Of a stretch of DNA of 64,000 nucleotides, positions 12,305-40,484 are shown one piece after another (position 1 is the stretch's first letter; each line of letters begins with the position of its first letter). The position numbers and the translations under genes are program-made. The DNA is taken from contig JAGPDT010000009.1 in assembly GCA_018057455.1 (NCBI GenBank), forward strand, positions 4,586-68,585, given 5' to 3'. The notes below the pieces were generated by a model, which saw only the letters and a list, made by a program, of their open reading frames with translations, made no database searches and was not told the DNA's origin. This DNA is from Flavobacteriales bacterium (GTDB taxonomy: Bacteria; Bacteroidota; Bacteroidia; Flavobacteriales_F; PHOS-HE28).

Positions 12305-12736
12305 ATGCTGAGCCTCACCTGCAAAGCCTCCATCAAGGCCGTGGTGTTCCTGGGCTCACGGCTCGCCACGGGGGCGCGCAGCAGCCTGAAGGAAGTGGCG
12401 GAGTTCATCGATGAGAACGAGCACACTGTGGGCAAGCTGCTGCAGCGGTTGGTGAAGGCGGGCCTCATCCAAAGCGCCAAAGGCCCCAAGGGCGGCTTCT
12501 TCCTCACGGCCAAACAAGCGGACCAGCGCGTGATGCGCATCGTGGAGGCCATCGACGGCGCCGACGTGTTCAAGCAATGCGGCCTGGGCCTGAGCCGGTG
12601 CAGCGACAGCCATCCCTGTCCCTTCCATGAAGACTTCAAGCCGATCCGCGAACAGTTCCGCGACCTCTGCAACGAACGCCGCGTGCGCGACCTCTACCAA
12701 GAGGTGAACAGCGGGCTGGCACACTTGGTGGGGTAA
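12305..12736 (+). CDS. Rrf2-family transcriptional regulator (NsrR/IscR-like)
   Basis: wHTH region KEVAEFIDENEHTVGKLLQRLVKAGLIQSAKGPKGGF, followed by three Cys (QCGLGLSRCSDSHPCPFH) as in cluster-binding Rrf2 proteins. Confidence 0.85.
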   Translation: MLSLTCKASIKAVVFLGSRLATGARSSLKEVAEFIDENEHTVGKLLQRLVKAGLIQSAKGPKGGFFLTAKQADQRVMRIVEAIDGADVFKQCGLGLSRCSDSHPCPFHEDFKPIREQFRDLCNERRVRDLYQEVNSGLAHLVG

Positions 12737-12869
12737 AGAGGTGCCCATTCCCTGCGGCAATCGGCTTGCGACGGAAGCTGCCGACCAAGCAAAGTCGCGC
12801 CGATGCATCCCTGCGGCACGTAGCTGAACGTGTGCAGGAACGCCATCCGCATGTGCAAGCTGAAGCGCC

Positions 12870-12936
12870 CGCAGGGTCTCGCGATGCGGACCCCTGCGGG
12901 GGGTATGTCGCAGGGTCCCGAGGCGGAGACCCTGCG
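12870..12936. repeat. REP-type double hairpin (H1-H2), copy a
   Basis: CGCAGGGTCTCGCGATGCGGACCCCTGCG, a 10-nt spacer, then CGCAGGGTCCCGAGGCGGAGACCCTGCG. Related copies lie at 16670-16754 and 23536-23604. Confidence 0.7.
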
Positions 12937-13261
12937 GGAGGGGGAATGTAGTGAGGCGGACCGCCCGCGCCGGGTCACGCCAAGACGTACCCATGCCTCC
13001 GGCATACAGGTCCGGTAAATAGCGGGTACAGCGATGGGACGTTCCCATAGCGTCTCGTGCTTCGTGCAGCAGATGGGTCCCGAGCTGCCTGCGCGAAGCG
13101 CTACGGCAGCCAAAGAGCGGAGACCCAGCGGAAGTTCAGGATACCATTACTTTGCCCACTGAAGTTCCGGGGGGAAATCCGAACGGTCACAGTGGGTTAC
13201 TGCTATCCACGCAGCCCGACACAGCCCTCGGAACTTCCTTTTTTTCCGGTGCTTGGCGGCA

Positions 13262-13960
13262 TCAGGCTTCTTCAGGCCAAGGCAATAAGGCGGTTCGTCC
13301 AGTGAGCACCTTGTCCAATAGTTGGCGGAACCGGCTGTCCTGCCCTGGCCGTACCAGCACATCCTGCCAACGCTCCCAAAGGACCAAATGCGGCCGCGCG
13401 AACGGATGGACCTCCAAACTGATCCCATCCCTGGACCGCCGGCTGCGCTTCAATTTGTTGCGCACGAATCCCAACGCCCATAGGTCTTGTTGGGGTTTCC
13501 CTTTCCCCACAAGCAGCTCTGCGGCACGCACGTAGCCCATCGCCTGCATGCGGAGAAGATCGGTGCCATACATGTACGGGTCGTTCCATGTGTACCAACT
13601 ATCGGCACGGCCCTGTGCATTGTTCCAATAGGACACTTCGGTGAAATGCCCTTCAGCTATCGATCGTGCTGCGTACTCATCACTGGCATAACGGAGTTCC
13701 ATGATCGCCTTGGGGCGGTACATCAATATGTCCGCATCCCGGTCCCAGATGAAGTGCTTTTCCCAGGCGGGCATTGGCACAACAGGATACCAGGTCCTCG
13801 GTTCTTCCGGCAGCCTCCGGCGCACGATGCCTGCTTCCACTTGGCGGGTTATTTCTTCTTCACTGCTGCCAAGCCAGTGCCCGTAGTCGAGGTACTGGCC
13901 ATATCCGTGCAATTTCGCCCAGCGAGGTATGTCCAAGTGATACGGGTAGCGGCGTGGCAT
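13262..13960 (-). CDS. hypothetical protein (232 aa, Trp/Tyr-rich), no family recognised
   Basis: Clean ORF with no competing long shadow frame and lower GC than the core genes. MPRRYPYHLDIPRWAKLHGYGQYLDYGHW... Confidence 0.55.
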   Translation of the reverse strand: MPRRYPYHLDIPRWAKLHGYGQYLDYGHWLGSSEEEITRQVEAGIVRRRLPEEPRTWYPVVPMPAWEKHFIWDRDADILMYRPKAIMELRYASDEYAARSIAEGHFTEVSYWNNAQGRADSWYTWNDPYMYGTDLLRMQAMGYVRAAELLVGKGKPQQDLWALGFVRNKLKRSRRSRDGISLEVHPFARPHLVLWERWQDVLVRPGQDSRFRQLLDKVLTGRTALLPWPEEA

Positions 13961-14004
13961 GGAGGCAATGTAGCACTGGCAAGCCCGATCTACCTTGCCT
14001 GCGC

Positions 14005-14877
14005 ATGATGAGCCAAAAACACGTGAGGGACCGTTTCAACCGGAAGCAGCAATTGGCCGCCGAAGGACATGCGGAGTTGTTGGACTTCATGCATGGTTCA
14101 TTTGCTCCTGTGATTGCATCCATTCCATTGTTGAGGCACGCCAAGAAGCATGGCATAGAGCCACTGTGTACGCCGGGCCATCTGCGAAGGAGCGACCTGG
14201 TGCGTTGGGGTTTGCTGGAGAAAGTGGTAACGGACGATGCGCTCGACCCATACGATGGCTATCGGCCAACTGAAGAGGGGAGCCGATACCTGCTCTATGA
14301 GGAGGCCTTTCAACTGCTTGCAATACGTAGCGGCTTCGCCAAGGAGCTGATGGACCGGCGCGAAGCTGAAGTGCAACGGGAATCCAGCGAATGTTTTGAG
14401 CAATTGGATCCAGGGGAGAAGACAGCGGCGATCTTCGCGATGAGGGAGTTCATCGGCCTGCATCAATTCAACCCCGACAAACAATGGGGGAACGCATGGA
14501 CACTGCGTGATCATGAAGGCCATGACCTGGTGCTGCCCATTGAATTAGTTCGTCGCAAGACGGCGCGGGAAGAAAGCCTATCGTTCATTGGAGGCATCGA
14601 GGAACTGTTCAGCAACCCGGATGAGGTGCGAGTGGTTGAACAGCCGGGCGGATTGCGCACGCACCGGTACATCAAGATCTATCCCGGTCTCGTGCTGTTC
14701 GGCATCGTGGCGATCGAAGGCGACCGGCCCGTGCGGATCGTTGATTGGTTCGGCTTCACATACGATCCAAGTTCAGCTGATTATACTGCGCAGAAGGAGA
14801 TCATTCGGCGGGACTGGATTGGTGAATGCATCCATGTTGGTCCGGAGCATCCATCAAAACAGGCCAAGAAGGAATGA
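14005..14877 (+). CDS. hypothetical protein (290 aa), no family recognised
   Basis: ORF 13774..14877 trimmed to ATG 14005 (MMSQKHVRDRF...), because the upstream part overlaps the divergent gene. The C-terminus is beta-rich: THRYIKIYPGLVLFGIVAIEGDRPVRIVDWFGF. Confidence 0.55.
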   Translation: MMSQKHVRDRFNRKQQLAAEGHAELLDFMHGSFAPVIASIPLLRHAKKHGIEPLCTPGHLRRSDLVRWGLLEKVVTDDALDPYDGYRPTEEGSRYLLYEEAFQLLAIRSGFAKELMDRREAEVQRESSECFEQLDPGEKTAAIFAMREFIGLHQFNPDKQWGNAWTLRDHEGHDLVLPIELVRRKTAREESLSFIGGIEELFSNPDEVRVVEQPGGLRTHRYIKIYPGLVLFGIVAIEGDRPVRIVDWFGFTYDPSSADYTAQKEIIRRDWIGECIHVGPEHPSKQAKKE

Positions 14878-14988
14878 GCGGTTCTCGCTCCTTATGAGCT
14901 GCAACCTGGACTCCGTTCCTTCCCGCGCCGGGTCACGCCAACAAGGACCACCGGCAAAAAGCGGATCCTGCGCTGGGATGGGCCTTGC

Positions 14989-15164
14989 TGTGCGCCCCCC
15001 GCCGTACGGCGGGTCGTTCACACTCTGGTTGCGGTAGTTCTACGCTGTGTGACATCCTTCGGAGTCACCAATTGCACCTCACCAAGTGACCCCAACGGGG
15101 TCACAAAGCGTAGCATGCTGACAATCTCCGGCGGTTCGACCCGCCGCATGGCGGGCGTCGCACA
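14989..15164. repeat. nested palindromic element, copy B
   Basis: TGTGCGCCCC..GTCG ... CTACGCTGTGTGACATCCTTCGGAGTCAC ... GTGACCCCAACGGGGTCACAAAGCGTAG ... CGAC..GGGCGTCGCACA. The arm order matches copy A (5940-6104). Confidence 0.7.
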
Positions 15165-15260
15165 AGATCCCCTTTTTGCAGGGAGACAAAGACGCATCTA
15201 GCCTGAAGCGAACTTCCCCCATTCCCGTGCCCTTCCTACTTTGCCCCTTCACATTCCACC

Positions 15261-18122
15261 ATGTCCATTTCCCGCCGCGAGATCCGCACCCGCGCCACCA
15301 AGTTCGCCAAGCAATGGGCCCAGGCCACCGACGAGGAGGCCGATGCCAAGCCCTTCTGGTACGAGTTCTTCCACGTCTTCGGCATCCGTGCGCGCACCGT
15401 GGGCAGCTACGAAGTGCATGTGCGCAAGCTCGATGACGCCTTGGGCAAGATCGATTACTTCTGGCCCGGCATGCTGCTCATTGAGCACAAGAGCCGCGGC
15501 AAGGACCTGAAGAAGGCCGCTATTCAAGCAGTGGATTACCTCCACGGCGTGAAGGAGCACGAGAAGCCGCGCTACATCATCGTCAGTGATTTCGCCCGCT
15601 TTGTGCTGTACGACCTGGACCAGGGCACGGAGACCGAAGTGAAGCTGGAAGACCTTCCGCAGCAGATCGAGCGCTTCGACTTCATCGCCGGCTACGAGGC
15701 GCGGCCGGTGCGCGAACAAGATCCCGTGAACATCCAAGCGGCCGAGTACATGGGCCGCCTGCACGATGAACTGAAAGCCTCCGGCTATGAAGGAAAGGAA
15801 CTTGAAGTCTACTTGGTGCGCTTGCTCTTCATCCTCTTCGCCGACGATACCGGCATCTTCGAGCAGGACGCTTTTTACAACTTCATCGTGGACCAAACGC
15901 GCGAGGACGGCACCGACCTCGGCCCGCAGATCGCCCTGCTGTTCCAACTGCTGAACACGCCCGATGCCAAGCGCCAGAAGAACCTCGATGAGCGCCTCGC
16001 CGACTTCAAGTACATCAACGGAAAACTCTTCGCCGAGCCGCTGCCCATCGCCCATTGGAACGGCGGCATGCGCGTTACCCTGCTGGAATGCGCCAGCCTC
16101 AACTGGAGCCGCATCAGCCCCGCCATCTTCGGTGCGCTGTTCCAGAGCGCCATGGATGCCAAGGCCCGCCGCAACCTCGGCGCGCACTACACCAGCGAGC
16201 AGAACATCCTCAAGCTCATCAAGCCGCTTTTCCTGGATGAACTGTGGGCCGAATTTGAGAAGGTGAAAGGCAGCAAGGCCAAGCTGGAGCAGTTCCACGG
16301 CAAGCTGAGCGAGCTGCGCTTTTTGGACCCCGCCTGCGGCTGCGGCAACTTTTTGGTGATCACCTACCGCGAGTTGCGCGAACTGGAGATCGCCGTGATC
16401 ACCGCCCAACTGAAAGGCCAGCAAGTGGTGGACGTGGACAAGCTGGTGCTGCTGAACGTGGACCGCTTTTTCGGGATCGAGATCGAGGAGTTCCCCGCGC
16501 AGATCGCCCAGGTGGCCATGTGGCTGATGGACCACCAAATGAACCAGCGCATCAGCGCGGCCTTTGGCGAGTACATGGTGCGGATCCCGCTGCGCAAAAG
16601 CGCCACCATCGCGTGTGCCAATGCGCTTACTACGGATTGGCAGGGGTTGTTGGTTCCCGGGCGTGGAGCCGCAGGGTCCCGAAGCGGAGACCCTGCGGGA
16701 GTTGCGGAGGGGGTAGGGGAAGCTCCCGCAGGGTCTCGCATGGCGGACCCTGCGTTGGAACATCGCTTCGACTACATCCTCGGCAATCCGCCGTTCATCG
16801 GCAGCAAGCTGATGACCACCGACATGCGCACGGACCTCCTGCGCATCTTCCCCGGCGTGAAGGGCGCGGGCACGCTGGATTTCGTGTGCGGTTGGTACGG
16901 CCTGGCCGCGCAATACATGAAGGCGCACGGTGATGGAAAGACCTGCTCCGCCTTCGTGAGCACCAACAGCATTACGCAGGGTGAACAGGTGGGCGCGCTG
17001 TGGGGGCCGCTGCTCGCCCAAGGGATCAAGGTCCACTTTGCACACCGCACGTTTCATTGGAACAACGAGGCGCGCGGCGTGGCCGCCGTGCATTGCGTCA
17101 TCATCGGCTTCGCGAATTTCGATGTGCCCAAGAAGCGCTTGTTCAGCTACGCGGACCCAAAGGCCGAACCGGAGGAAAGCGTGGTGGCGAACATCAGCCC
17201 GTATTTGGTGGAAGGCGGGGATGTGGTGATCTACAGCCGCCAACGACCGCTATGCAATGTGCCGGAGATCGGTATTGGCAACAAGCCCATTGATGGCGGC
17301 TACTACCTCTTCACGGACGAAGAGAAGGCCGCGTTCATCCGCAATGAACCCGGATCCAAGAAGTACTTCCACCGGTGGCTGGGCAGCGATGAGTTCATCA
17401 ACGGTTGGCAGCGCTGGTGCCTGTGGTTGGGTGAGGCATCTCCATCAGAATTAAAGACAATGCCCGAAGTGCTTGCAACAATTGAGTTAGTGAGGAAATA
17501 CCGATTGGGGCTGATAAAGGCAAAGAGTGGAAGGGAAGCAACGGCTGGTGGAAGTTCTTTGAAGCTCGCTGAAACGCCTACCCAGTTCCACGTGCAATTC
17601 ATTCCGAAGGAGCGATTCATGGTGATTCCGGAAGTCTCGTCAGAAAGGCGGAAATACATTCCCATGGGTTATATGGAACCGGATACACTGTGCTCGAACA
17701 AGCTCCGGTTGATGCCACATGCTACGCTGTTTCACTTTGGGATCTTGATGTCGAACATGCACATGGCTTGGACAAATCATGTTTGTGGAAGATTGGAAAG
17801 CAGATACCAGTATTCGATCAAGATCGTGTACAACAACTTCCCGTGGCCTGAGCAACCCACGGCCGCGCAACAAGCCGCCGTGGAGAAGGCCGCGCAAGGG
17901 GTGCTGGATGCGCGGGCGCAATTCGCCACCGCAAGCCTCGCGGACCTCTACGACCCGCTCACCATGCCACCCGCGCTGGTAAAAGCCCACCAAGCCTTGG
18001 ACAAGGCCGTGGACAAGTGCTACCGCCCGCAGCCGTTCGCGAATGATGCGAAGCGGGTGGAGTATTTGTTTGAGTTGTATGAGCGGTATGTGGGTGGGTT
18101 GATGGGTGGGAAAAGGGGTTAG
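15261..18122 (+). CDS. MmeI-family Type IIL restriction-modification enzyme (fused PD-ExK nuclease + N6-adenine methyltransferase + TRD)
   Basis: N-terminal IDYFWPGMLLIEHK gives D-X9-E-X-K. SAM motif I is FLDPACGCGNFLV and motif IV is GNPPF. The helical C-terminal tail is KAHQALDKAVDKCY...RVEYLFELYERY. Length 953 aa. Confidence 0.85.
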   Translation: MSISRREIRTRATKFAKQWAQATDEEADAKPFWYEFFHVFGIRARTVGSYEVHVRKLDDALGKIDYFWPGMLLIEHKSRGKDLKKAAIQAVDYLHGVKEHEKPRYIIVSDFARFVLYDLDQGTETEVKLEDLPQQIERFDFIAGYEARPVREQDPVNIQAAEYMGRLHDELKASGYEGKELEVYLVRLLFILFADDTGIFEQDAFYNFIVDQTREDGTDLGPQIALLFQLLNTPDAKRQKNLDERLADFKYINGKLFAEPLPIAHWNGGMRVTLLECASLNWSRISPAIFGALFQSAMDAKARRNLGAHYTSEQNILKLIKPLFLDELWAEFEKVKGSKAKLEQFHGKLSELRFLDPACGCGNFLVITYRELRELEIAVITAQLKGQQVVDVDKLVLLNVDRFFGIEIEEFPAQIAQVAMWLMDHQMNQRISAAFGEYMVRIPLRKSATIACANALTTDWQGLLVPGRGAAGSRSGDPAGVAEGVGEAPAGSRMADPALEHRFDYILGNPPFIGSKLMTTDMRTDLLRIFPGVKGAGTLDFVCGWYGLAAQYMKAHGDGKTCSAFVSTNSITQGEQVGALWGPLLAQGIKVHFAHRTFHWNNEARGVAAVHCVIIGFANFDVPKKRLFSYADPKAEPEESVVANISPYLVEGGDVVIYSRQRPLCNVPEIGIGNKPIDGGYYLFTDEEKAAFIRNEPGSKKYFHRWLGSDEFINGWQRWCLWLGEASPSELKTMPEVLATIELVRKYRLGLIKAKSGREATAGGSSLKLAETPTQFHVQFIPKERFMVIPEVSSERRKYIPMGYMEPDTLCSNKLRLMPHATLFHFGILMSNMHMAWTNHVCGRLESRYQYSIKIVYNNFPWPEQPTAAQQAAVEKAAQGVLDARAQFATASLADLYDPLTMPPALVKAHQALDKAVDKCYRPQPFANDAKRVEYLFELYERYVGGLMGGKRG
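16670..16754. repeat. REP-type double hairpin (H2-H1) inside the MmeI-like CDS, in frame
   Basis: CGCAGGGTCCCGAAGCGGAGACCCTGCG ... CGCAGGGTCTCGCATGGCGGACCCTGCG. It is translated as ...AAGSRSGDPAGVAEGVGEAPAGSRMADPA... just upstream of FDYILGNPPF. Confidence 0.7.
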
Positions 18123-18157
18123 GCAATTGAAATGGAAATGATCCCGAACTTTGAAGC

Positions 18158-19321
18158 ATGATTATCACACGGTTGAAGCTCAAGAATTGGAGAAATTTCA
18201 AGCACGTTGAGGTGAACCTCCGTGAGCGGGTGTACCTCATAGGGCCAAATGCATCCGGTAAATCGAACCTCCTTGACGTCTTCCGGTTTCTGCGTGATAT
18301 TGCAAAGGCGGAGGGTGGCGGGCTTCAAAAGGCCGTTGTTGGCGACCGTGGGGGATTGAAGCGGATACGGTGCCTCAACGCCCGCAGGGATCCCGAAGTG
18401 ATGATCGAGGTGGAGATGTCTGAAGCCATGAACGCGCCGGCAAAGTGGCGCTACACCTTGGGCATTAAAAGTGAAGGGACCGGGCTGCAACGGCCCGTTG
18501 TATCCCAAGAAACCGTGGTGGACTTGATCGCGGACAAGAAGTTGTTGGACCGGCCGAATGCAGAGGATGCAGGAGATCCGGAATTGCGCACGGTCACCCA
18601 TTTGGAACAGGTAAGCGCGAACAAGTCGTTCCGGGAGGTCGCCGATTTCTTCAGTGGCGTCACCTATCTCCATTTGGTGCCACAACTGTTGAAATATGGT
18701 GACCGGATCGGTGGATCGCACTTGGAGGGCGATCCCTTCGGCCAGGCATTTCTCCAGCAGATCGCCAAAGCTACCGAGCGGGTGCAGCACTCCCGATTGA
18801 AGAAGATCGAACGCGCTTTGCAGGTTTGTGTTCCGAATATGAGGCAACTCTCGTTCGAGCGCGACAAGGTGGACGGCACGCCCCATTTGGTGGCACAATT
18901 TGAACATTGGCGGCCCAACGCCGGTTGGCAACGGGAGAATGAATTCAGCGATGGCACACTCCGATTGCTCGGTATCATGTGGAGTTTGTTGGACGGTGAT
19001 GGAGTGTTGCTCTTGGAAGAGCCGGAACTTTCCTTGAACGAAGCGATCGTCGGCCGCATTCATAAGCTCGTAGTTCAGATGCAACGCCAAGCCAAATATC
19101 CCAGGCAAGTATTCATCACTACCCATAGTGAAGCTCTTTTGTCCGACGAGGGGATCGATATTCGCGAGGTGTTGCGCCTCGATCCAACCCAGGATGGCAC
19201 TGTGGTCCATGAACCGGATGAGACGGACCGGAAGCTGGTGCGGTCCGGATACACCGTCTCGCAAGCCATGCTACCCAAAGTAAAACCTAAGGGTGTGGAT
19301 CAACTCAGCTTCTTCGATTAA
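18158..19321 (+). CDS. ABC/SMC-type AAA ATPase (AAA_21-like; AriA/RloA/OLD-ATPase-like)
   Basis: Walker A GPNASGKSN, signature-like FSDGTLRLLG, Walker B VLLLEEPE, H-loop ITTHS. Confidence 0.85.
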   Translation: MIITRLKLKNWRNFKHVEVNLRERVYLIGPNASGKSNLLDVFRFLRDIAKAEGGGLQKAVVGDRGGLKRIRCLNARRDPEVMIEVEMSEAMNAPAKWRYTLGIKSEGTGLQRPVVSQETVVDLIADKKLLDRPNAEDAGDPELRTVTHLEQVSANKSFREVADFFSGVTYLHLVPQLLKYGDRIGGSHLEGDPFGQAFLQQIAKATERVQHSRLKKIERALQVCVPNMRQLSFERDKVDGTPHLVAQFEHWRPNAGWQRENEFSDGTLRLLGIMWSLLDGDGVLLLEEPELSLNEAIVGRIHKLVVQMQRQAKYPRQVFITTHSEALLSDEGIDIREVLRLDPTQDGTVVHEPDETDRKLVRSGYTVSQAMLPKVKPKGVDQLSFFD

Positions 19322-19920
19322 TGGCAGGCAGTAGGGAAGTAATGCTCGTCTGTGAAGACCAGCTGGGTGCGGATATGCTGGTGCGATTAGTTTCCCATGC
19401 AAGGCCACAATTGTCCATAAGGTCAGTGGAGGTCACTCGTGGCAACACAAGAATTGCCGCGAGCATCGGTAAATATGCACGGGCTTCACAAGCGGGCGTG
19501 GCACATATCATCCTTACGGACCTGGACCGCGTAGCATGCCCGCCAAGCCTCATTGCGGAGTGGAATGTTCCTGAAGTGCCGGGCTATCTTCTTTTCCGGG
19601 TCGCTGTCCGTGAGGTGGAATCCTGGCTCCTGGCAGACAATACAGGTCTTGCCAAATTCCTTGGAATTCCTGCTAGCAAGATCAGCATGCAGCCCGATGA
19701 GGTGAATGACCCCAAGGAGAACCTGATGAACCTGGTGCGACGCTGTAGAAATAAACGGCTCAAACAAGATATCCTACCGGAAACAGGCTCCACGGCCAAG
19801 AAGGGCGTATTCTACAATGAACGTTTCGGTCGATTTGTCAGAATCGATTGGAACTTGGAGCGTGCTGCAAAATTATCACCGAGCTTGAACAAGGCTCTTC
19901 TTCGAATCGGAAGTTTTTAG
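19321..19920 (+). CDS. Toprim-like small protein (DUF4276/DUF4435 class), partner of the ATPase
   Basis: Its ATG overlaps the upstream stop (TAATG). The acidic motifs LVCEDQ, ILTDLD and REVESWLLAD occur in Toprim order (E / DxD / E). Length 199 aa. Confidence 0.6.
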   Translation: MAGSREVMLVCEDQLGADMLVRLVSHARPQLSIRSVEVTRGNTRIAASIGKYARASQAGVAHIILTDLDRVACPPSLIAEWNVPEVPGYLLFRVAVREVESWLLADNTGLAKFLGIPASKISMQPDEVNDPKENLMNLVRRCRNKRLKQDILPETGSTAKKGVFYNERFGRFVRIDWNLERAAKLSPSLNKALLRIGSF

Positions 19921-19936
19921 GATCTCGTTCCACCCA

Positions 19937-20860
19937 ATGGACTTCATCACCCTCGACTTTGAAACGGCCAATCGGAACCGCAACAGCGCCTGCGAACTGG
20001 GCCTCACCTTCGTAAAGAACGGTGTGGTGGGAGAAACCCGAAGCTGGCTCTTGAAACCCATCCCGAACGACTTCGACTACTTCAATATCCTGCTGCACGG
20101 CATACGGCCGGAGATGGTCCAGGACCAGCCTGAGTTCAATGCCTTGTGGCCCGAGGTGCAACCGTTGCTGGAAGGCCAATTCGTGATCGCGCACAATGCC
20201 GGGTTCGACATCAGCGTACTTCGCAGGACGATGGAGCAATACGGAATTCCCTTTCCGAACATGAGCTATGCGTGCAGCTACATTTTCTCCAAACGCGTAT
20301 GGGAAGGATTGCCTTCCTATGGCCTGAAGGAACTGTGCGCGAAGAATGAAATTGCGTTCCGCCATCACCGCGCAGGGCCGGACAGCAGGGCCACGGCGGA
20401 ACTGGCGCTGAAGGCGTTTGAGTGCGCAGGAATTGAACGGCCAGATGACCTGCCCAACAAATTGAGGACCACCATCGGTGCATTGTTCCCCGGCGGGTTC
20501 CATGCGTGCAGGGCCAAGTCCGACAAAACCAGCCGGTGGTCCACTCCCCATCCTTCAAGCTTCATAGGGGATCCAGCAAAACAAGACCCGGATAATTTGT
20601 TCTTTGGCCAAACAGTGGTCTTCACGGGAGCATTGTCATCCATGACCCGTGCTGAAGCGCAACAAGCCATTGCGGACATCGGAGGGGTCAACGGGGTTGG
20701 TGTTACCAAGCAGACCGGCTTCTTGGTCGTCGGCCAGCAGGATTATCGCTTGGTCGGTGAAGATGGCTTGAGCGGAAAGCAGGAGAAGGCGCTAAAGTTG
20801 AAGGCGGCCGGAGTGCCGATCGAGATCATGTCGGAAGCGGATTTCAAGGACCACATCTGA
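19937..20860 (+). CDS. DEDDh 3'-5' exonuclease (DnaQ-like) fused to a C-terminal BRCT domain
   Basis: DFETAN (DxE), HNAGFD and HRAGPDSRA (Hx4D). The BRCT-like part is FFGQTVVFTGALSSMTRAEAQQAIADIGG...GFLVVG. Confidence 0.8.
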   Translation: MDFITLDFETANRNRNSACELGLTFVKNGVVGETRSWLLKPIPNDFDYFNILLHGIRPEMVQDQPEFNALWPEVQPLLEGQFVIAHNAGFDISVLRRTMEQYGIPFPNMSYACSYIFSKRVWEGLPSYGLKELCAKNEIAFRHHRAGPDSRATAELALKAFECAGIERPDDLPNKLRTTIGALFPGGFHACRAKSDKTSRWSTPHPSSFIGDPAKQDPDNLFFGQTVVFTGALSSMTRAEAQQAIADIGGVNGVGVTKQTGFLVVGQQDYRLVGEDGLSGKQEKALKLKAAGVPIEIMSEADFKDHI

Positions 20861-20893
20861 TATCGAGTCCTAAGAAGAACAACAGGGGGGCCA

Positions 20894-20983
20894 TTCATTG
20901 GCGCGAGCGCCCTCCGCTCGTGCATCATTCCATCGGTTGTACTGCACCAACGCACGAGCGGAAGACGCTTGCGCGAGATCCGG
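20894..20983. repeat. hairpin element of about 90 bp, copy 1
   Basis: TTCATTGGCGCGAGCGCCCTCCGCTCGTGC-loop-GCACGAGCGGAAGACGCTTGCGCGAGATCCGG, with a stem of about 22 bp. A near-identical copy lies at 21876-21965 in the same orientation. Confidence 0.75.
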
Positions 20984-21038
20984 TGAAACTGTTGCAGAGG
21001 AAGAAGGAACGAATGGGCTTTATCTTTGAACGAAGCCA

Positions 21039-21290
21039 ATGGCACCCAAAGCGATCAAACCGAACATCGAGGGCTATGCGTTCTATTTCTTCAGCAACGA
21101 GAACAACGAACCCGCGCATGTGCATGTGCGCAAGGGAGATGGGCTGGTCAAATACTGGCTGGAACCTGCGGTGGTACTGGCCGATGATAACGGCCGCATG
21201 AAGGTGCAGGAATTGCGGCGTGCTGAAGAACTTGTAAAGGAGAACAGGAGCCGCATTGAAAAAGCTTGGAACGAATACTTCGCATTATGA
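21039..21290 (+). CDS. DUF4160 domain protein
   Basis: 83 aa. YFFSNENNEPAHVHVRKGD matches the DUF4160 core. Confidence 0.75.
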   Translation: MAPKAIKPNIEGYAFYFFSNENNEPAHVHVRKGDGLVKYWLEPAVVLADDNGRMKVQELRRAEELVKENRSRIEKAWNEYFAL

Positions 21291-21628
21291 GCAACCGAAA
21301 GCCAGTGATACAAGACCCCGTAAACGCGATGATCCGCGAACAAGGTGTCCGCATCACCGCCGTGCATGCCATCAAGGATGCGAACCTCTTGCTGGTCATG
21401 CTCAACGAAGGCCGCTTGGAGTTCCCCTTGGATGGCTTCAAGCGCCTGGCAAAAGCCAGCCAAGCCCAGCTGAACAAGTACGAGCTGCTGCCCGATGGCG
21501 CAGGTGTGCATTGGCCTGGTTTGGACGAGCACTTGAGTTTGCGCGGCTTTCTGCTCGCAACAATGCGCGAGATGCTGCATGGGCCTGCACCCGCACGTTC
21601 AAGGAAGAGCAGCAGGGTGCCGGTCTGA
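21287..21628 (+). CDS. DUF2442 domain protein
   Basis: ATGA start/stop overlap with the DUF4160 gene. ITAVHAIKDANLLLVMLNEGRLEFPLDGFKRLAKASQAQLNKYELLPDGAGVHWPGLDEHLSLRGFL is DUF2442-like. Confidence 0.75.
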   Translation: MSNRKPVIQDPVNAMIREQGVRITAVHAIKDANLLLVMLNEGRLEFPLDGFKRLAKASQAQLNKYELLPDGAGVHWPGLDEHLSLRGFLLATMREMLHGPAPARSRKSSRVPV

Positions 21629-21875
21629 AGGGGGATGTGCATAGCCGCGGTATAGCGCTGCGGACACAGTCAGAAAACGCAAAACCAGTCACAGACGGCA
21701 TATAACTCCCTCTGCGACCGGTGCCGTAATCTCGAACTAGCTATAACATTGATCAGAACCAAACACGATGGACTGGTTCACAGCCTGGCTAAGCTTGTTG
21801 ATCGTAGGTTGGTGGAATCGCCGAAAAGATAGGCGGGAGCAGCGCCGGACACGGCGTTAGGGACATCAACGCCTT

Positions 21876-21965
21876 TTCATTGGCGCGAGCGTCCTCCGCA
21901 CGTGCCTCATTCCATCGGTTGTACTGCACAAACGCACGAGTGGAGGGCGCTTGCGTGAGCTCCGG
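21876..21965. repeat. hairpin element of about 90 bp, copy 2
   Basis: TTCATTGGCGCGAGCGTCCTCCGCACGTGC-loop-GCACGAGTGGAGGGCGCTTGCGTGAGCTCCGG. A degenerate short-loop derivative (CTCGTGCTGGCAATCGCACGAGCGGAGGA) lies at about 22905-22945. Confidence 0.75.
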
Positions 21966-21967
21966 GG

Positions 21968-22390
21968 TCAATCAACTCCCCACGCCGCACAAAGATCCCG
22001 GAATACGATGTATGCCGCCATTTCCCGCATGGAGAATACGTAATGTGGGGTGAACGCGTGGATGTCGCCGCTTTCACGGACGATCCGGGCTGAGAGCGGG
22101 TCCAGGATCGCCAACCCATTTTGGGTGACATCCTTAAAATATGCCTTGTTGGCCACGGTGTCTTTGTTCAAGTACTGAATGCAGTACTTGCGCTCACGAT
22201 GTTCGAACAGAACGGGCTCGTCGTTGATCCATACCTTACCGCACCCGCCGCATTCTGTCGTATTCAGGCGCTGGCTCATGATCCTTTCCATTGCCATGCT
22301 GTCTGTGGAATAGGCCACGGACCACACCAACGTCAGTTGCTCGTGGCCGCAAGCAGGGCATTTGAATTCATGGTTTCTCTTTATGGACAT
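21968..22390 (-). CDS. CpXC domain protein (paralogue 1)
   Basis: CPACGHEQ ... ECGGCGK zinc-ribbon pair. The core YCIQYL is shared with the neighbouring gene. Confidence 0.7.
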   Translation of the reverse strand: MSIKRNHEFKCPACGHEQLTLVWSVAYSTDSMAMERIMSQRLNTTECGGCGKVWINDEPVLFEHRERKYCIQYLNKDTVANKAYFKDVTQNGLAILDPLSARIVRESGDIHAFTPHYVFSMREMAAYIVFRDLCAAWGVD

Positions 22391-22406
22391 GGCAGCTTAT
22401 TGGCTT

Positions 22407-22865
22407 TCATTCATCAGCGTCGGCAGCAGGGGTTTCCTCCGGTGCATCCTTGCCCCACCGGGCGCAACGATCACGGAAATCGATGTAGGCGACCAACTCA
22501 TCCATGCCGAACACGAAGTGGGGGCGGAGAAAATGTTCGCCTTGGGTGTTCATGGCGATTGCGGTGCTGATCGCGTCCATGACCTGGGTTCCCTGCTTGG
22601 TGATCCTTGCATAGGTTTCCTTCGCTCCCATGACCTCCTCGCCAAGGTATTGTATGCAGTACCCCCGTTCCAGGTCATGGTAGAGCAAGCTTCCGTCCAC
22701 GAAGGCCCTCGACTTGCACTTCTCGCACTCGAAAATGTTCAAGCGTTGTTCTTTCAACGCATGTACCAAGTCCTTGTCGCCCGTGTTCACTGAGGACCAA
22801 ACCTCCATGTGTTGCTGGTGTCCACAACTTGGGCAGGCCAATTCTTGAGGATAGGACATGGACAT
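22407..22865 (-). CDS. CpXC domain protein (paralogue 2)
   Basis: ORF 22407..22982 trimmed to MSMSYPQELACPSCGHQQ...ECEKCKS...YCIQYL. Similar to paralogue 1 along its whole length. Confidence 0.7.
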   Translation of the reverse strand: MSMSYPQELACPSCGHQQHMEVWSSVNTGDKDLVHALKEQRLNIFECEKCKSRAFVDGSLLYHDLERGYCIQYLGEEVMGAKETYARITKQGTQVMDAISTAIAMNTQGEHFLRPHFVFGMDELVAYIDFRDRCARWGKDAPEETPAADADE

Positions 22866-23002
22866 GCTCGGCGGGTATGAAGGATTGCCGCAATATAGAA
22901 TACCAGTGTCTCGTGCTGGCAATCGCACGAGCGGAGGATACTCGCATGAGGTTTGGGCGCGGCATCCGCGCACGCAAGCCATGCAGCATCTTTGCCCGCA
23001 GC

Positions 23003-23505
23003 ATGTGGTTCACCGATCTTTTCGGCTTTGAAGAGGAAACGGCTGAGCAGGTGCGGCGCAACTTGGCCCACATCGCCACCGTGCTGCACGACATGAATGA
23101 TGCAGTCCGGCAACGGTTGAAAGGGAAGCTGAGGATCGGGCTGCAATGGGATACGGAAGTGACCTTGGCGGATCCAGCGCAGATCGTATCCCAAGCGTAT
23201 TGCTCGGCATTACCGCTCGCATACTCCCATGTGGATGGCGGTCTCTGGGAGCCTTTTGCACGCTTGATCCTGGAGGCGACCTAGAAGCCACGTTGTTTGC
23301 GGCGCTGATCAATCTCGAACGGCGCGGCTCGAACATCGTTTACCTCACCTTGCTCGGTGGCGGTGCCTTCGGGAATCCCCAGGTGTGGATCATGGATGCA
23401 CTGCGGCAAGCACTTCATAGGTTCAAGGATGTGCCATTGGACGTGCGGATCGTGAGCTACGGCAGCCCGGATCCCTTGGTGAAGGCAATGGCGGATGGCT
23501 GGTGA
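23003..23505 (+). pseudogene. frameshifted gene, possible macro/PARG-like fold
   Basis: ORF 22829..23284 (from MWFTDLFGFEEE) ends ...ARLILEAT-TAG. ORF 23146..23505, in another frame, continues ...DLEATLFAALINLERRG...YLTLLGGGAFGNPQVWIMDAL. The EAT codons are duplicated around the break at about 23270-23290. Confidence 0.5.
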
Positions 23506-23535
23506 GGACTAGGCCCGAGCGCGATCTGAAGCTCC

Positions 23536-23604
23536 CGCGTGGTCTCGCAAAGCGGATCCTGCGGTGGAACAGGGATTGCCCGGTCCCGAGGCGGAGATCC
23601 CATG
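23536..23604. repeat. REP-type double hairpin (H1-H2), copy c (diverged)
   Basis: CGCGTGGTCTCGCAAAGCGGATCCTGCG ... CCGGTCCCGAGGCGGAGATCCCATGG. Same H1-H2 order as copy a. Confidence 0.55.
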
Positions 23605-23636
23605 GGAATGTATGCCCGCCGCCCGGACGGGTGGAC

Positions 23637-23834
23637 TCAGTCCTTGCCGCGGGATCGCCGTTTCCTACGCTGCCACCAGGTGGCGCCCAACCATGCCCCC
23701 AACGCACCCCCAAGGGCAGGAAGGAACATTTGCTGGCCACTTGCGGCGTAATAAGCCCAGGCCAGCAACTGGAACACGGCGGTGAAAACAACCAGTTGAA
23801 CGAGCTGGGTGCGGATGGGGCTGTTGCGGAGCAT
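23637..23834 (-). CDS. small two-TM membrane protein (65 aa), hypothetical
   Basis: MLRNSPIRTQLVQLVVFTAVFQLLAWAYY...LGGALGAWLGATWWQRRKRRSRGKD. Two hydrophobic segments and a basic tail. The ORF is short, so this call is uncertain. Confidence 0.3.
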   Translation of the reverse strand: MLRNSPIRTQLVQLVVFTAVFQLLAWAYYAASGQQMFLPALGGALGAWLGATWWQRRKRRSRGKD

Positions 23835-23955
23835 GGGAAGAATGGCGTGGATCGGCACCACGGGCCGAATGTAGCAACCGGTGCATGTGGCACCGGCCGG
23901 ATGCAAGAGGGCGGCCACGCGGGCCGCCCTTATGCAATGCCGTCAGGAGGTCCGT

Positions 23956-25137
23956 TCAAACCCCCAACTTCTTCGCGATTGCGGCAGGCACCGCCTTCTT
24001 GTTCACCATGAAGGCCGTCATCTTGTAAGCGGCGTAGGGTTTGCTCATGTACAAGAAGCCCTCCTGCTGGTTGCTGGTGCCCCAGCTGTTCTTCACGATG
24101 TACCATTCGGTGCCGTTCTGGTCCTTGGCGATGCCGGTGATGTGCATGCCGTGGTCGTCGGTGGTGGCGAAGCTGTCGAAGGCCTTTTGGCGCATCTCGT
24201 TGGTGATCACCGGCTCGGGCTGCGGCCCCTTGAACAGGTTCTCCTTCTGTTCCTTGGAGAGCTCGGCCGCGGGCGTGGTGGTCACGAACGCCACGCCGTT
24301 CTTCCAACTGAAGGAAGGTTCGCTGACATCACCGCCCCAGGCCACGGAGTAGCCGTTCTTGAGGGCATTGTCAACAATGGCCGTGATGTCCTCCACGGGG
24401 ATGTTCCACGCTTGGTTGAGCGCCCAGTTGTCCGGCACCATCAACGTGGACTTCGCATAGAAGGGCACGTCCGCCACGCTTTGGAACTCCAAGTAGTCGT
24501 TGGCGTCCAGCTTCACCACGTCCTTGGCGAAGCTCTGCGGGGTGTAGCTCTTTCCCATGTACGAGAAGCTCTCCGGCGCGTGGCCCAGGTAGGCATCCAG
24601 CACACCGCTGATCGCCTGCGGCCACACCGTGGTGAGCGTGCCCTTGTTGGGTGCCTGCACGATGGCGTCCAGCATCGCCTTGATCACCGCCTGCATCTCA
24701 CCGCTCTGGTTCTTGGCATTGCCGAAGTTGAGTCCCGTGTAGGCCTCGTAGGGCACCGCGCCGTACTTGGCGTACATGTTCACCACGTCGTGGGCGATGC
24801 CGCCGTCGCCGTAGTTGAGCGAGCCATGCATGCGCACGTAGCTCTTGGCCTTCTCCTCATAGCTGCGCCGGGCGATGTAGATCTTGCTGAGGTGGATCGA
24901 CGGTCCGCCCTTCTTGATCATCTCGGATTCCAGGAACGAGCCCGTGCTGTAGCTCCAGCAGGTGCCCGATGAGCCTTGGTCCTCCACGGGCGTACCCGGG
25001 GTGGAGAGCACCTGGCTGAAGCGGAAACCGGTGGTGTCGGCACTGTTGCCACTGATCTTCTTGATGAGGTCGTCTTGGGCATGCAGGCTGCCCATGGACA
25101 GGATCGCGGCCATGCAGGCCAGATTGCGCACGTTCAT
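23956..25137 (-). CDS. pepC: C1-family cysteine peptidase, aminopeptidase C / bleomycin-hydrolase-like, with signal peptide
   Basis: The active-site context QGSSGTCWSYSTGSFLESE is typical of PepC. Start moved to MNVRNLACMAAILSMGSLHAQ. Confidence 0.8.
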   Translation of the reverse strand: MNVRNLACMAAILSMGSLHAQDDLIKKISGNSADTTGFRFSQVLSTPGTPVEDQGSSGTCWSYSTGSFLESEMIKKGGPSIHLSKIYIARRSYEEKAKSYVRMHGSLNYGDGGIAHDVVNMYAKYGAVPYEAYTGLNFGNAKNQSGEMQAVIKAMLDAIVQAPNKGTLTTVWPQAISGVLDAYLGHAPESFSYMGKSYTPQSFAKDVVKLDANDYLEFQSVADVPFYAKSTLMVPDNWALNQAWNIPVEDITAIVDNALKNGYSVAWGGDVSEPSFSWKNGVAFVTTTPAAELSKEQKENLFKGPQPEPVITNEMRQKAFDSFATTDDHGMHITGIAKDQNGTEWYIVKNSWGTSNQQEGFLYMSKPYAAYKMTAFMVNKKAVPAAIAKKLGV

Positions 25138-39071: not shown

Positions 39072-40484
39072 ATGAGTGAAGCCCATCGCCCGTCGCCGGA
39101 GCGCAATGCCGACCAGGAGCAGTGTGTGCGGCGCTACGAGGCCATGGAAGCCTCCAAGGACCGCTTCTTCTTCGATGTGGAGGAATTCGAGCTGATCGTG
39201 GACCACTACTTGGAAGGCAACGAGCCGCGCAAGGCGGCCCGGGCGGTGGAGTTCGCCAAGCAATTGCACCCTTCCTCCCTGCAGATCACCTTCTGCGAGG
39301 CCGTGGTGATGATGGCCCTGGGCCGCCTGAGCAAGGCCTTGGAACTCTTGGACACCGTGGAGAAAGTGGAGCCGTGGAACGAGGATGTACAGCTCAACAA
39401 GGCGGGCATCTACAGCCAGCAGCGCAACCACCGGCGCGCCGTGGAACACTATAAACGTGCGCTGGACCTGGCGGAGGAAGGTGCCGACGAGATCCACCTG
39501 GACCTGGCCTTTGAATATGAGAACCTGGAGGACTTCGACTCGGCCATTGAGTGCCTCAAGCATGCCTTGGAACTGAACCCGGAGAACGAAGCCGTGCTGT
39601 TCGAACTGGCCTACTGCTACGACCTGGCCGGTGCGGACGAGGCCAGTATCTCCTTCTTCCGCCAATTCACCAACGAACAGCCGTATTCCAGCGTGGCCTG
39701 GTACAACCTGGGCAACGTGTACTCCAAACTGGAGCAGTACGACGAGAGCAACCAAGCCTTGGACCTGGCCATGGTCATCGATGAACGCTTCAGCTCGGCC
39801 TACTTCAGCAAGGCACGGAACCTGCTGATCCAGTCGCGCTTCGAGGAGGCCATTGCATGTTATGAGGAGACCTTGGTATTTGACGGCCCCCAGGCCATCA
39901 CCTACAGCTTCATCGGCGAGTGCTACGAAAAGATGGAGCGTTTGGAACAGGCCCTGGTCAACTACGACCAGAGCATCGCCATGGACCCCGAATGGGTGGA
40001 CGCATGGATCGGGCGGGGCGTGGTGAAGGACCTGCAGGGCAAGCTCCCCGAAGCCCTCCAATGCTTGCAACATGCCGTACGCCTCAGCGCGGAAAACCCC
40101 GATGCCTGGTATTGCCTGGCTTCGGTGCTGGCGCGCTTGGAGCGATACGACGAAGCCTTCGCCGCCTACACCAAGCTGAACGTGCTGGAACCGCAGAACT
40201 TGGACGGCTGGCTGGACCATGCGGACCTGCACCTGGAGATGAAAGGCGCCGAAGCCGCCGTGCAGAAGCTGCAGGAAGCCGCCCAAATCCACCTGTTGAG
40301 CGCCCGCTTCAAGTACCGCCTGGCCAGCTACCTGATCCGTGCCGCCCAAGAACAGCAGGGATTGTTGGTGCTGGAAGAGGCCCTGGCCATCGACCACGCC
40401 GCCCACACGCAATTCATGGAACACTGGCCCGGGGCGGCCCAACTACCGCAAGTGATCCATCTCATTGAGCTATACCGCAAATGA
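39072..40484 (+). CDS. TPR-repeat protein
   Basis: Multiple 34-aa repeats (AWYNLGNVYSKLEQYDESNQALDLAMVID...). Start moved to MSEAHRP. Confidence 0.8.
   Translation: MSEAHRPSPERNADQEQCVRRYEAMEASKDRFFFDVEEFELIVDHYLEGNEPRKAARAVEFAKQLHPSSLQITFCEAVVMMALGRLSKALELLDTVEKVEPWNEDVQLNKAGIYSQQRNHRRAVEHYKRALDLAEEGADEIHLDLAFEYENLEDFDSAIECLKHALELNPENEAVLFELAYCYDLAGADEASISFFRQFTNEQPYSSVAWYNLGNVYSKLEQYDESNQALDLAMVIDERFSSAYFSKARNLLIQSRFEEAIACYEETLVFDGPQAITYSFIGECYEKMERLEQALVNYDQSIAMDPEWVDAWIGRGVVKDLQGKLPEALQCLQHAVRLSAENPDAWYCLASVLARLERYDEAFAAYTKLNVLEPQNLDGWLDHADLHLEMKGAEAAVQKLQEAAQIHLLSARFKYRLASYLIRAAQEQQGLLVLEEALAIDHAAHTQFMEHWPGAAQLPQVIHLIELYRK

Follow-up and report, generated by a model that had tools for sequence, protein, structure and literature searches.

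How does a gene for a restriction-modification enzyme stay open when two hairpins of a dispersed repeat lie in the middle of its methyltransferase domain? The question is raised by a stretch of 64,000 nucleotides from a Flavobacteriales bacterium (assembly GCA_018057455.1, contig JAGPDT010000009.1, positions 4,586 to 68,585), which was analysed as a whole and is called the window below. Here, a gene of the MmeI family carries, shortly before the codons of its catalytic motif IV, an inverted doublet of a repetitive extragenic palindrome (REP). The explanation that we hold with good confidence is a selfish-DNA insertion tolerated in a permissive loop of an enzyme that is likely active. The following features of the window are needed for the argument.

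15261 to 18122, plus strand: MmeI-family (Type IIL/IIG) fused restriction-modification gene, intact, 953 amino acids (Pfam, PDB 5HR4, AlphaFold 2 model).
16653 to 16766, plus strand: expanded beta3-beta4 loop, amino acids 465-502; 114 nucleotides versus 15 (CCC GAA GGA GAG CGC, encoding PEGER) in orthologues, a net gain of 99 nucleotides or 33 amino acids.
16669 to 16698, plus strand: REP hairpin H1, CCGCAGGGTC CCGAAGCGGA GACCCTGCGG, then the GGGAG tail of the family (inverted repeat I2 with arms of 10 nucleotides, 100% complementary; nhmmer E = 7e-8).
16699 to 16726, plus strand: spacer between H1 and H2, with H1's GGGAG tail and H2's CTCCC head in it; supplies the loop and the outer stem in a long fold resembling a REPIN (two inverted REP units folding as one long hairpin).
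16727 to 16754, plus strand: REP hairpin H2, CGCAGGGTC TCGCATGGCG GACCCTGCG, inverted relative to H1 (inverted repeats I4 and I1; nhmmer match on the minus strand).
16785 to 16796, plus strand: motif IV NPPF, amino acids 509-512, catalytic site of a gamma-class N6-adenine methyltransferase, intact (translation; invariant N509, P510, P511 and F512, corresponding to MmeI 481-484, PMC4833311).

Translation of the reading frame at 15261-18122 yields 953 amino acids without an internal stop. The stems of both hairpins are perfect, and both hairpins are read in frame, as the initial annotation had stated. All five Pfam domains of the family, MmeI_N, MmeI_hel, MmeI_Mtase, MmeI_TRD and MmeI_C, are present in this order (PF20464, PF20465, PF20473, PF20466 and PF20467; 79-283 bits at a cut-off of 27 bits). 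This succession of nuclease, helical spacer, gamma-class methyltransferase, target recognition domain and C-terminal bundle is the five-domain architecture of MmeI. A phmmer comparison with MmeI (PDB 5HR4, E = 0) resulted in two blocks, pairing query residues 1-464 with MmeI 1-470 and query residues 503-944 with MmeI 475-903. Between them, from ...WNDVL to CCFILGNPPF, MmeI has 4 residues and the host protein 38. An AlphaFold 2 model based on an alignment of 96 homologues reached a mean predicted local distance difference test score (pLDDT) of 84.7 and a predicted template modelling score (pTM) of 0.80; Foldseek superposed it on 5hr4 with a target-normalised TM-score of 0.86. The host protein keeps all invariant columns of the 96-sequence alignment, including motif I DPACGCGNF (356-364), H309, NPPF (509-512), W600, and D65, E75 and K77, which we take to be the PD-(D/E)XK nuclease residues. 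The roles of the methyltransferase residues, including the equivalents of H309 and W600 that box the flipped adenine, are those established for MmeI (PMC4833311). With this enzyme (5HR4; PMC4833311), the host protein shares the domain architecture and the catalytic residues and motifs, with 53% identity across the part that is modelled. Enzymes of this family methylate one strand and cut about 20 nucleotides away. The two proteins have different target recognition domains, so the recognition sequence is probably different.

The origin of the extra segment becomes apparent from the orthologues, for which 40 related genomes were searched and four of the same genus (G014, G010, G004 and G007) were used. 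Query residues 1-467 are 93%, 90%, 88% and 66% identical to these, respectively, and in all four the match restarts at query residue 501, running to 951, on the very next DNA base. Opposite the 114 nucleotides of the window, the aligned orthologues read CTG TTG CCC GAA GGA GAG CGC TTC GAC (LLPEGERFD) as contiguous DNA. In blastn comparisons of the loci with the window, the sequence shared with G014 extends into the downstream neighbour gene, and these loci are thus orthologous. On the strength of this alignment, the 99-bp segment is an insertion and not a native linker, which agrees with the proposal of a REP-type in-frame insertion into the methyltransferase domain, as do the 4 residues found in MmeI. 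The alternative named together with that proposal, an equivalent native segment in homologues, was not borne out: where homologues have a segment at this position it differs in sequence and is palindromic, and the nearest orthologues have none. Across the insert the translation reads ...LLVPGRGAAGSRSGDPAGVAEGVGEAPAGSRMADPALEHRFDYILGNPPF, and the complete loop LL-VPGRGAAGSRSGDPAGVAEGVGEAPAGSRMADPALEH-RFDYILGNPPF. An earlier description of roughly 30 residues immediately before FDYILGNPPF was right in placing them ahead of motif IV; the net gain is 33 residues, four residues (LEHR) intervene, and the net insertion ends 8 residues before NPPF.

The structural model agrees with an insertion at a tolerant site. 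Insert residues 467-499 have pLDDT values of 28-39, below 50, and the strands on either side are confident, namely 449-452, the motif III strand, and 505-508, leading into NPPF. The structure prediction that had been recommended for this segment thus returned a loop between two confident strands. The loop of 38 residues is rich in Gly, Ala, Pro and Ser. According to the model, the insert would sit in a disordered loop that is probably exposed at the surface. In the class I methyltransferase fold, this connection goes from the top of the edge strand to the bottom of the central strand. By analogy with this general fold, the extra residues should lie on the face opposite the catalytic cleft.

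The inserted DNA itself contains two hairpins of one repeat family. Both H1 and H2 have perfect stems of 9-10 bp, 100% complementary, around interiors of 10 nucleotides, and they are 81% complementary to each other over 32 nucleotides, which makes them an inverted doublet. Folded as RNA, the loop region of 114 nucleotides forms a single long hairpin of -69.2 kcal/mol (z = -5.1; 0 of 200 dinucleotide shuffles were as stable), and in the minimum-free-energy fold H1 is paired with H2. A search with Rfam at a permissive threshold across positions 12500-24000 gave no match; the hairpin thus belongs to none of the described RNA families. A scan for terminators and promoters likewise found nothing at the insert, neither a T-run nor a terminator-like site. 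Two related doublets are located between genes of the window.

12870 to 12936, no strand assigned: intergenic REP doublet of the same family in the order H2-H1 (sequence comparison, nhmmer).
23536 to 23604, no strand assigned: degenerate REP doublet, again intergenic and from this family, in the order H2-H1 (sequence comparison).

Both copies, already noticed in the initial annotation, are real, the second being degenerate and both having the reversed order of units. H1 shares 97% identity over 32 nucleotides with the first copy (12909-12940), and H2 86% over 44 nucleotides with the second (23528-23571).

We further determined the distribution of this hairpin family using a profile built from four copies, which was run with nhmmer (E<=0.3) on the genome of 3.3 Mb (62% GC, 130 contigs). 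The count of REP copies called for at the outset came to 23 distinct units, mostly outside genes, which is a low number for a REP family. They share the consensus (G)CCGCAGGGTCYC-loop-GRGACCCTGCGGGAG. This genome has seven occurrences of the exact hairpin pattern. Of 24 genomes of the same genus, 16 contain it as well, with 1-15 copies each and including those with an empty MmeI orthologue; it is missing from all 16 genomes that represent other genera of the class. A reversed control pattern was found 0 times in 41 genomes, so the seven copies and the presence in 16 of 24 congeners exclude chance. Judged by this distribution, the hairpin family is a REP specific to this genus. The inner stems differ among copies by paired, compensatory changes, which shows that the whole family maintains its hairpin shape. 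In a few units the interior is long, 30-40 nucleotides, and the outer stems resemble terminal inverted repeats. The tetranucleotide GTAG was present within 25 nucleotides downstream of 4/23 units versus a background of 6.6%, at variable positions, and this is not significant. Units were assigned as intragenic or intergenic by codon-position GC on both flanks and by homology rather than with a gene caller. Units inside real genes are the MmeI pair, a copy in a GT9 gene and a copy in aroA (E=1.5) only. Weak nhmmer matches in long open frames of contigs C74 and C103 were rejected as intragenic copies owing to a nonsense translation and an antisense GC pattern.

Inserts at this position are not restricted to the gene in the window. 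More than six residues at the turn were found in 14 of the 59 closest homologues. Across 106 homologues, the great majority of inserts of at least 8 amino acids fall at alignment columns 464-468, and minor groups occur near residues 553-556 and 889-891. DNA was retrieved for nine insert-bearing homologues, and in all nine the inserts (17-84 amino acids) are encoded by strongly palindromic sequence, -20 to -140 kcal/mol, from different repeat families; examples are GGGATTCCGGGGCAGGCCCGGAATGAC units and GTCACTCCGGA... units. The units of homologues P0002 and P0007 are CTCAGGGTC variants of the hairpin family of the window with further elements nested or added, and in some lineages (P0007, P0042) several elements are stacked at the loop. 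Mapped on a tree of the 59 sequences, which was built from sequence outside the loop, the insert state requires 12 changes, and at least 8 of these are forced by well-supported branches. The window and P0002/P0007 have in common a GTT codon at the left junction and a last hairpin placed alike. This suggests that, within the small clade of the window, these inserts may share one origin, as far as can be judged from sequence comparison rather than from the tree. Some relatives with low GC content have a 44-residue segment without repeats at the same turn, which again marks the turn as permissive.

Altogether, these data suggest the following course of events. A doublet of the genus-specific REP inserted into the MmeI-family coding sequence, adding 99 bp in frame, and the turn of 4-5 residues between the strands of motif III and motif IV thereby grew into a loop of 38 residues. 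Selfish palindromes may land at random or near-random positions; only in-frame, stop-free copies in permissive loops would last, and inserts elsewhere in the gene would be removed by selection. Five of the six reading frames of the insert are free of stops, and hence any insertion of the element with a length that is a multiple of three, in either orientation, will usually leave a gene open. Survival of the insert can be explained by this near-absence of stops together with a suitable length and a tolerant surface loop, and the same structural permissiveness can account for the unrelated palindromes gathered at this loop in homologues. Most likely, the insert is selfish DNA, either neutral or of slight cost, and not an adaptation, and the hot spot would be due to selection rather than targeting.

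A different outcome of the same insertion would be a disabled enzyme and a gene in early decay, its frame still open for no other reason than the recency of the event and the lack of stops in the element. The hairpins are still perfect, H1 being 1 of 32 nucleotides off its intergenic copy, which is compatible with a young insertion, and with five of six frames open an open frame is a weak sign of selection. In addition, the insert lies only 8 residues ahead of the catalytic NPPF, and restriction-modification genes in defence islands turn over fast. Yet the frame of 953 amino acids retains all residues that are invariant among the 96 homologues, both flanking strands are confidently folded in the model, and the ratio of nonsynonymous to synonymous substitution rates (dN/dS) is 0.09-0.19 versus three congeners, about 0.12, a value averaged over the whole divergence from these congeners, in which the period since insertion is not singled out. 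Relatives in independent assemblies are also full-length with inserts of up to 84 amino acids, some of them gaining elements (P0002 to P0007), and such long frames with bigger inserts would be unexpected in a gene already killed by its first insert. We therefore consider decay unlikely; the recent decay suggested in the initial annotation is disfavoured by the intact frame, the kept residues and the low dN/dS. It is very unlikely, in our view, that the hairpins have a role as RNA or DNA structures and are kept for it, tuning the amount of enzyme or the ratio of products by ribosome pausing, as an RNase site or by transcription attenuation. The fold is very stable (-69 kcal/mol, z = -5.1), its shape is maintained by compensatory changes in the inner stems, and extragenic REPs affect mRNA stability and termination, as reviewed in PMC3733652. 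Against such a role, the insert offers no T-run, terminator-like site or Rfam match, the nearest orthologues do without it, and conservation of the hairpin belongs to the whole repeat family rather than to the gene copy specifically. Moreover, the loop inserts of other homologues are unrelated in sequence and length, which fits tolerance better than a shared regulatory design.

The striking concentration of independent inserts at one loop might also mean that elements home to a DNA feature, or that extra residues are favoured there, for example for contacts with a partner or for escape from anti-restriction proteins. The stacked elements in P0007 and P0042, the GTT left-junction codon common to the window and P0002/P0007 and the 44-residue non-repeat elaboration in low-GC relatives could be read in this way. 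However, the inserted elements come from different families, which are unlikely to have one common target, no target motif was identified, and the insert is predicted to be disordered. There are two more, minor hot spots at other loops, and the linker and loop inserts in other genes of the genome are what a purely permissive filter predicts. We regard targeting or positive selection as very improbable indeed. Likewise doubtful is the broader notion of the turn before motif IV as a preferred landing site for palindromes or a site favouring extra residues. If this were true, REP traffic would regularly supply defence enzymes with new surface loops, and a high-GC Flavobacteriales-like genus would be a second, free-living case of Rickettsia-style palindromes written into proteins. 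The probability of a native ancestral variable linker, or of an assembly artefact, is close to negligible. Loop length does vary across the family and the genome is a draft of 130 contigs, but the loop is short in MmeI and in the orthologues of four congeners, and the extra DNA belongs to a repeat family with dispersed copies. Exactly 99 nucleotides in frame are unexpected of an artefact, comparable inserts exist in independent assemblies, and the empty orthologous sites refute the reading as a native linker.

Several points weigh against a tolerated insertion of a mobile REP doublet. The alignment that identified the insertion also left its edges blurred, since the old PEGE codons are untraceable in the flanking VPGR...LEH, and no target-site duplication, the second hallmark of a MITE besides terminal inverted repeats, is visible at the junctions in the orthologue alignment. 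The GGGAG tails point outward in both intergenic doublets (H2-H1) and inward in the gene copy (H1-H2). Given this opposite order of units, the gene copy may be another type of dimer, a section from inside an array, or the product of two events. The averaging inherent in the dN/dS value belongs here as well, and so does the activity of the enzyme, which is most likely retained, as far as we can infer. A further point concerns mobilisation. As Bertels and Rainey reportedly described in 2011, REPINs are mobilised by REP-associated tyrosine transposases (RAYTs). The gene copy shares with REPINs the two inverted REP units that fold as one long hairpin, and the genome encodes a RAYT, the one Y1 transposase match in the whole assembly (NCBIfam NF047646, 101 bits). 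In contrast to the usual pairing of RAYT and REPIN, this gene has another REP on its flanks, GCCGGACTCCAGTCCGGC, one that is essentially confined to the RAYT locus. A cognate RAYT flanked by the hairpin family was not found in the assembly, and no transposase could be assigned to the CGCAGGGTC family. The RAYT gene (L013:1417-2652, minus strand) itself contains in-frame copies of the GCCGGACTCCAGTCCGGC REP, translated as AGLESG, at 1588-1613 and 2116-2141.

In-frame palindromes were also observed in other genes of this genome. In the C-terminal part of aroA (EPSP synthase), a unit of the hairpin family, GCCTCAGGGTCCCCTTCGGGAGACCGCTGAGGGAGC, lies in frame (L023:2515-2551, equal to G000:C96:15746-15782) and encodes EPQGPLRETAEGA in place of the SGPITNRHP of three congeners, seven additional residues just before the conserved DHRMAMA. 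The GT9 (heptosyltransferase-like) gene has two in-frame extra segments that are missing or different in congeners. One of them, in the interdomain linker, contains a unit of the hairpin family (L027:2186-2220, equal to G000:C56:27520-27554), and the other comprises residues 47-68. At the same linker, G004 and G012 have REP-derived peptides of their own, SGSPKGDP and QGPLRETLRE, and an exact hairpin (G012:C3:58685-58712) lies within the GT9 gene of G012. In miaB (G000:C103, minus strand, ~39140-39245), about 35 extra residues, ASAQRTVGNCRAERPGDGGDEGSQSDLTADNQQLTAGE, between VVIVPR and LSPGD come from a long palindrome (-50 kcal/mol over 130 nucleotides) that belongs to another repeat family. 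From these sequences, in-frame palindromic inserts appear as a genome-wide habit, seen in the MmeI-like gene, aroA, GT9, RAYT and miaB. The statement in the initial annotation that in-frame intragenic REPs are uncommon consequently needs qualifying, as there are several in this genome and documented cases elsewhere (PMC3733652, PMC10969869).

Other observations concern the host gene and its surroundings. Compared with same-genus orthologues (loci L003, L004 and L005), the first 467 residues of the host protein are 88-93% identical and those after the insert 71-78%, with DNA identity falling from ~90% to 78-83%. This drop past the insert suggests that the target recognition half was exchanged or has diverged fast, in which case the recognition sequence would differ as well. 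In several relatives, the full gene is followed at a distance of 1-1.3 kb by a short orphan piece of the MmeI C-terminal domain (L015:7316-7492, L020:6140-6310 and G010:C3:43220-43390); these pieces are possibly leftovers of replaced specificity halves. One of the minor hot spots, corresponding approximately to window residues 553-560, is occupied in the G004 orthologue (L005:3052-3165) by three tandem units of 27 bp that encode QRVRPSEAE three times in frame; P0022, P0040, P0050, P0060 and P0021 have related or other inserts near ~553-560. The host gene is part of a defence-type stretch at 12737-23636, which is bounded by an Rrf2 regulator and a C1 peptidase and has a REP doublet close to either end. 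Upstream of it is a reading frame with a weak PBECR2-like match, and downstream follow an AAA_21 ATPase, a DUF4276-like protein, an RNase_T-BRCT exonuclease and two CpXC proteins. The RNase_T gene shows 90% DNA identity to one that adjoins the homologue P0003.

On its own, the insert is an ordinary, tidy example of tolerated selfish DNA in a gene. This kind of event is already known; worth remembering are the recurrent loop inserts in the MmeI family and the genome-wide in-frame habit. Together, the homologues form a natural map of the sites at which foreign peptide is accepted by MmeI-type enzymes, with one main loop, two minor ones and up to 84 extra residues. MmeI-family enzymes serve as scaffolds for engineering new specificities (PMC4833311), and a permissive loop is therefore practical information. 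The genus is also suited to studying repeat-made protein loops outside Rickettsia. Gene callers and domain models see odd low-complexity inserts in such proteins, the cause of which is now explained.

Two known systems come close to this case. Dimers of GTAG/CGTC REPs within known genes encode 20-30 amino acids and were argued to be neutral because they are located in linkers or loops, according to the part of the survey by Di Nocera et al. 2013 considered here (PMC3733652), which also counts Bacteroidetes among the phyla with CGTC repeats. The hairpin family resembles the elements in that part of the survey as short, GC-rich stem-loops that are often inverted dimers and can be intragenic, but the GTAG tag is not clearly present in it, and repeated insertion at one loop of one enzyme family is not described in the same part. 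The other system is that of the Rickettsia palindromic elements (RPEs), which lie in frame in coding sequences (Ogata et al. 2000; Claverie and Ogata 2003; both after the summaries in PMC10969869 and PMC3733652). As far as these summaries go, the likeness consists in dispersed palindromes that are read in frame, leave genes open, add tens of residues at fold-compatible sites and affect several unrelated genes per genome. The insert described here is accordingly RPE-like, being in frame, stop-free, missing from orthologues and placed in a loop compatible with the fold. In the same summaries, RPEs measure ~100-150 bp, belong to other sequence families and occur in reduced, obligate intracellular alpha-proteobacteria, whereas here a pair of REP hairpins of ~30 nucleotides is found in a free-living-type genome of 3.3 Mb with 62% GC.

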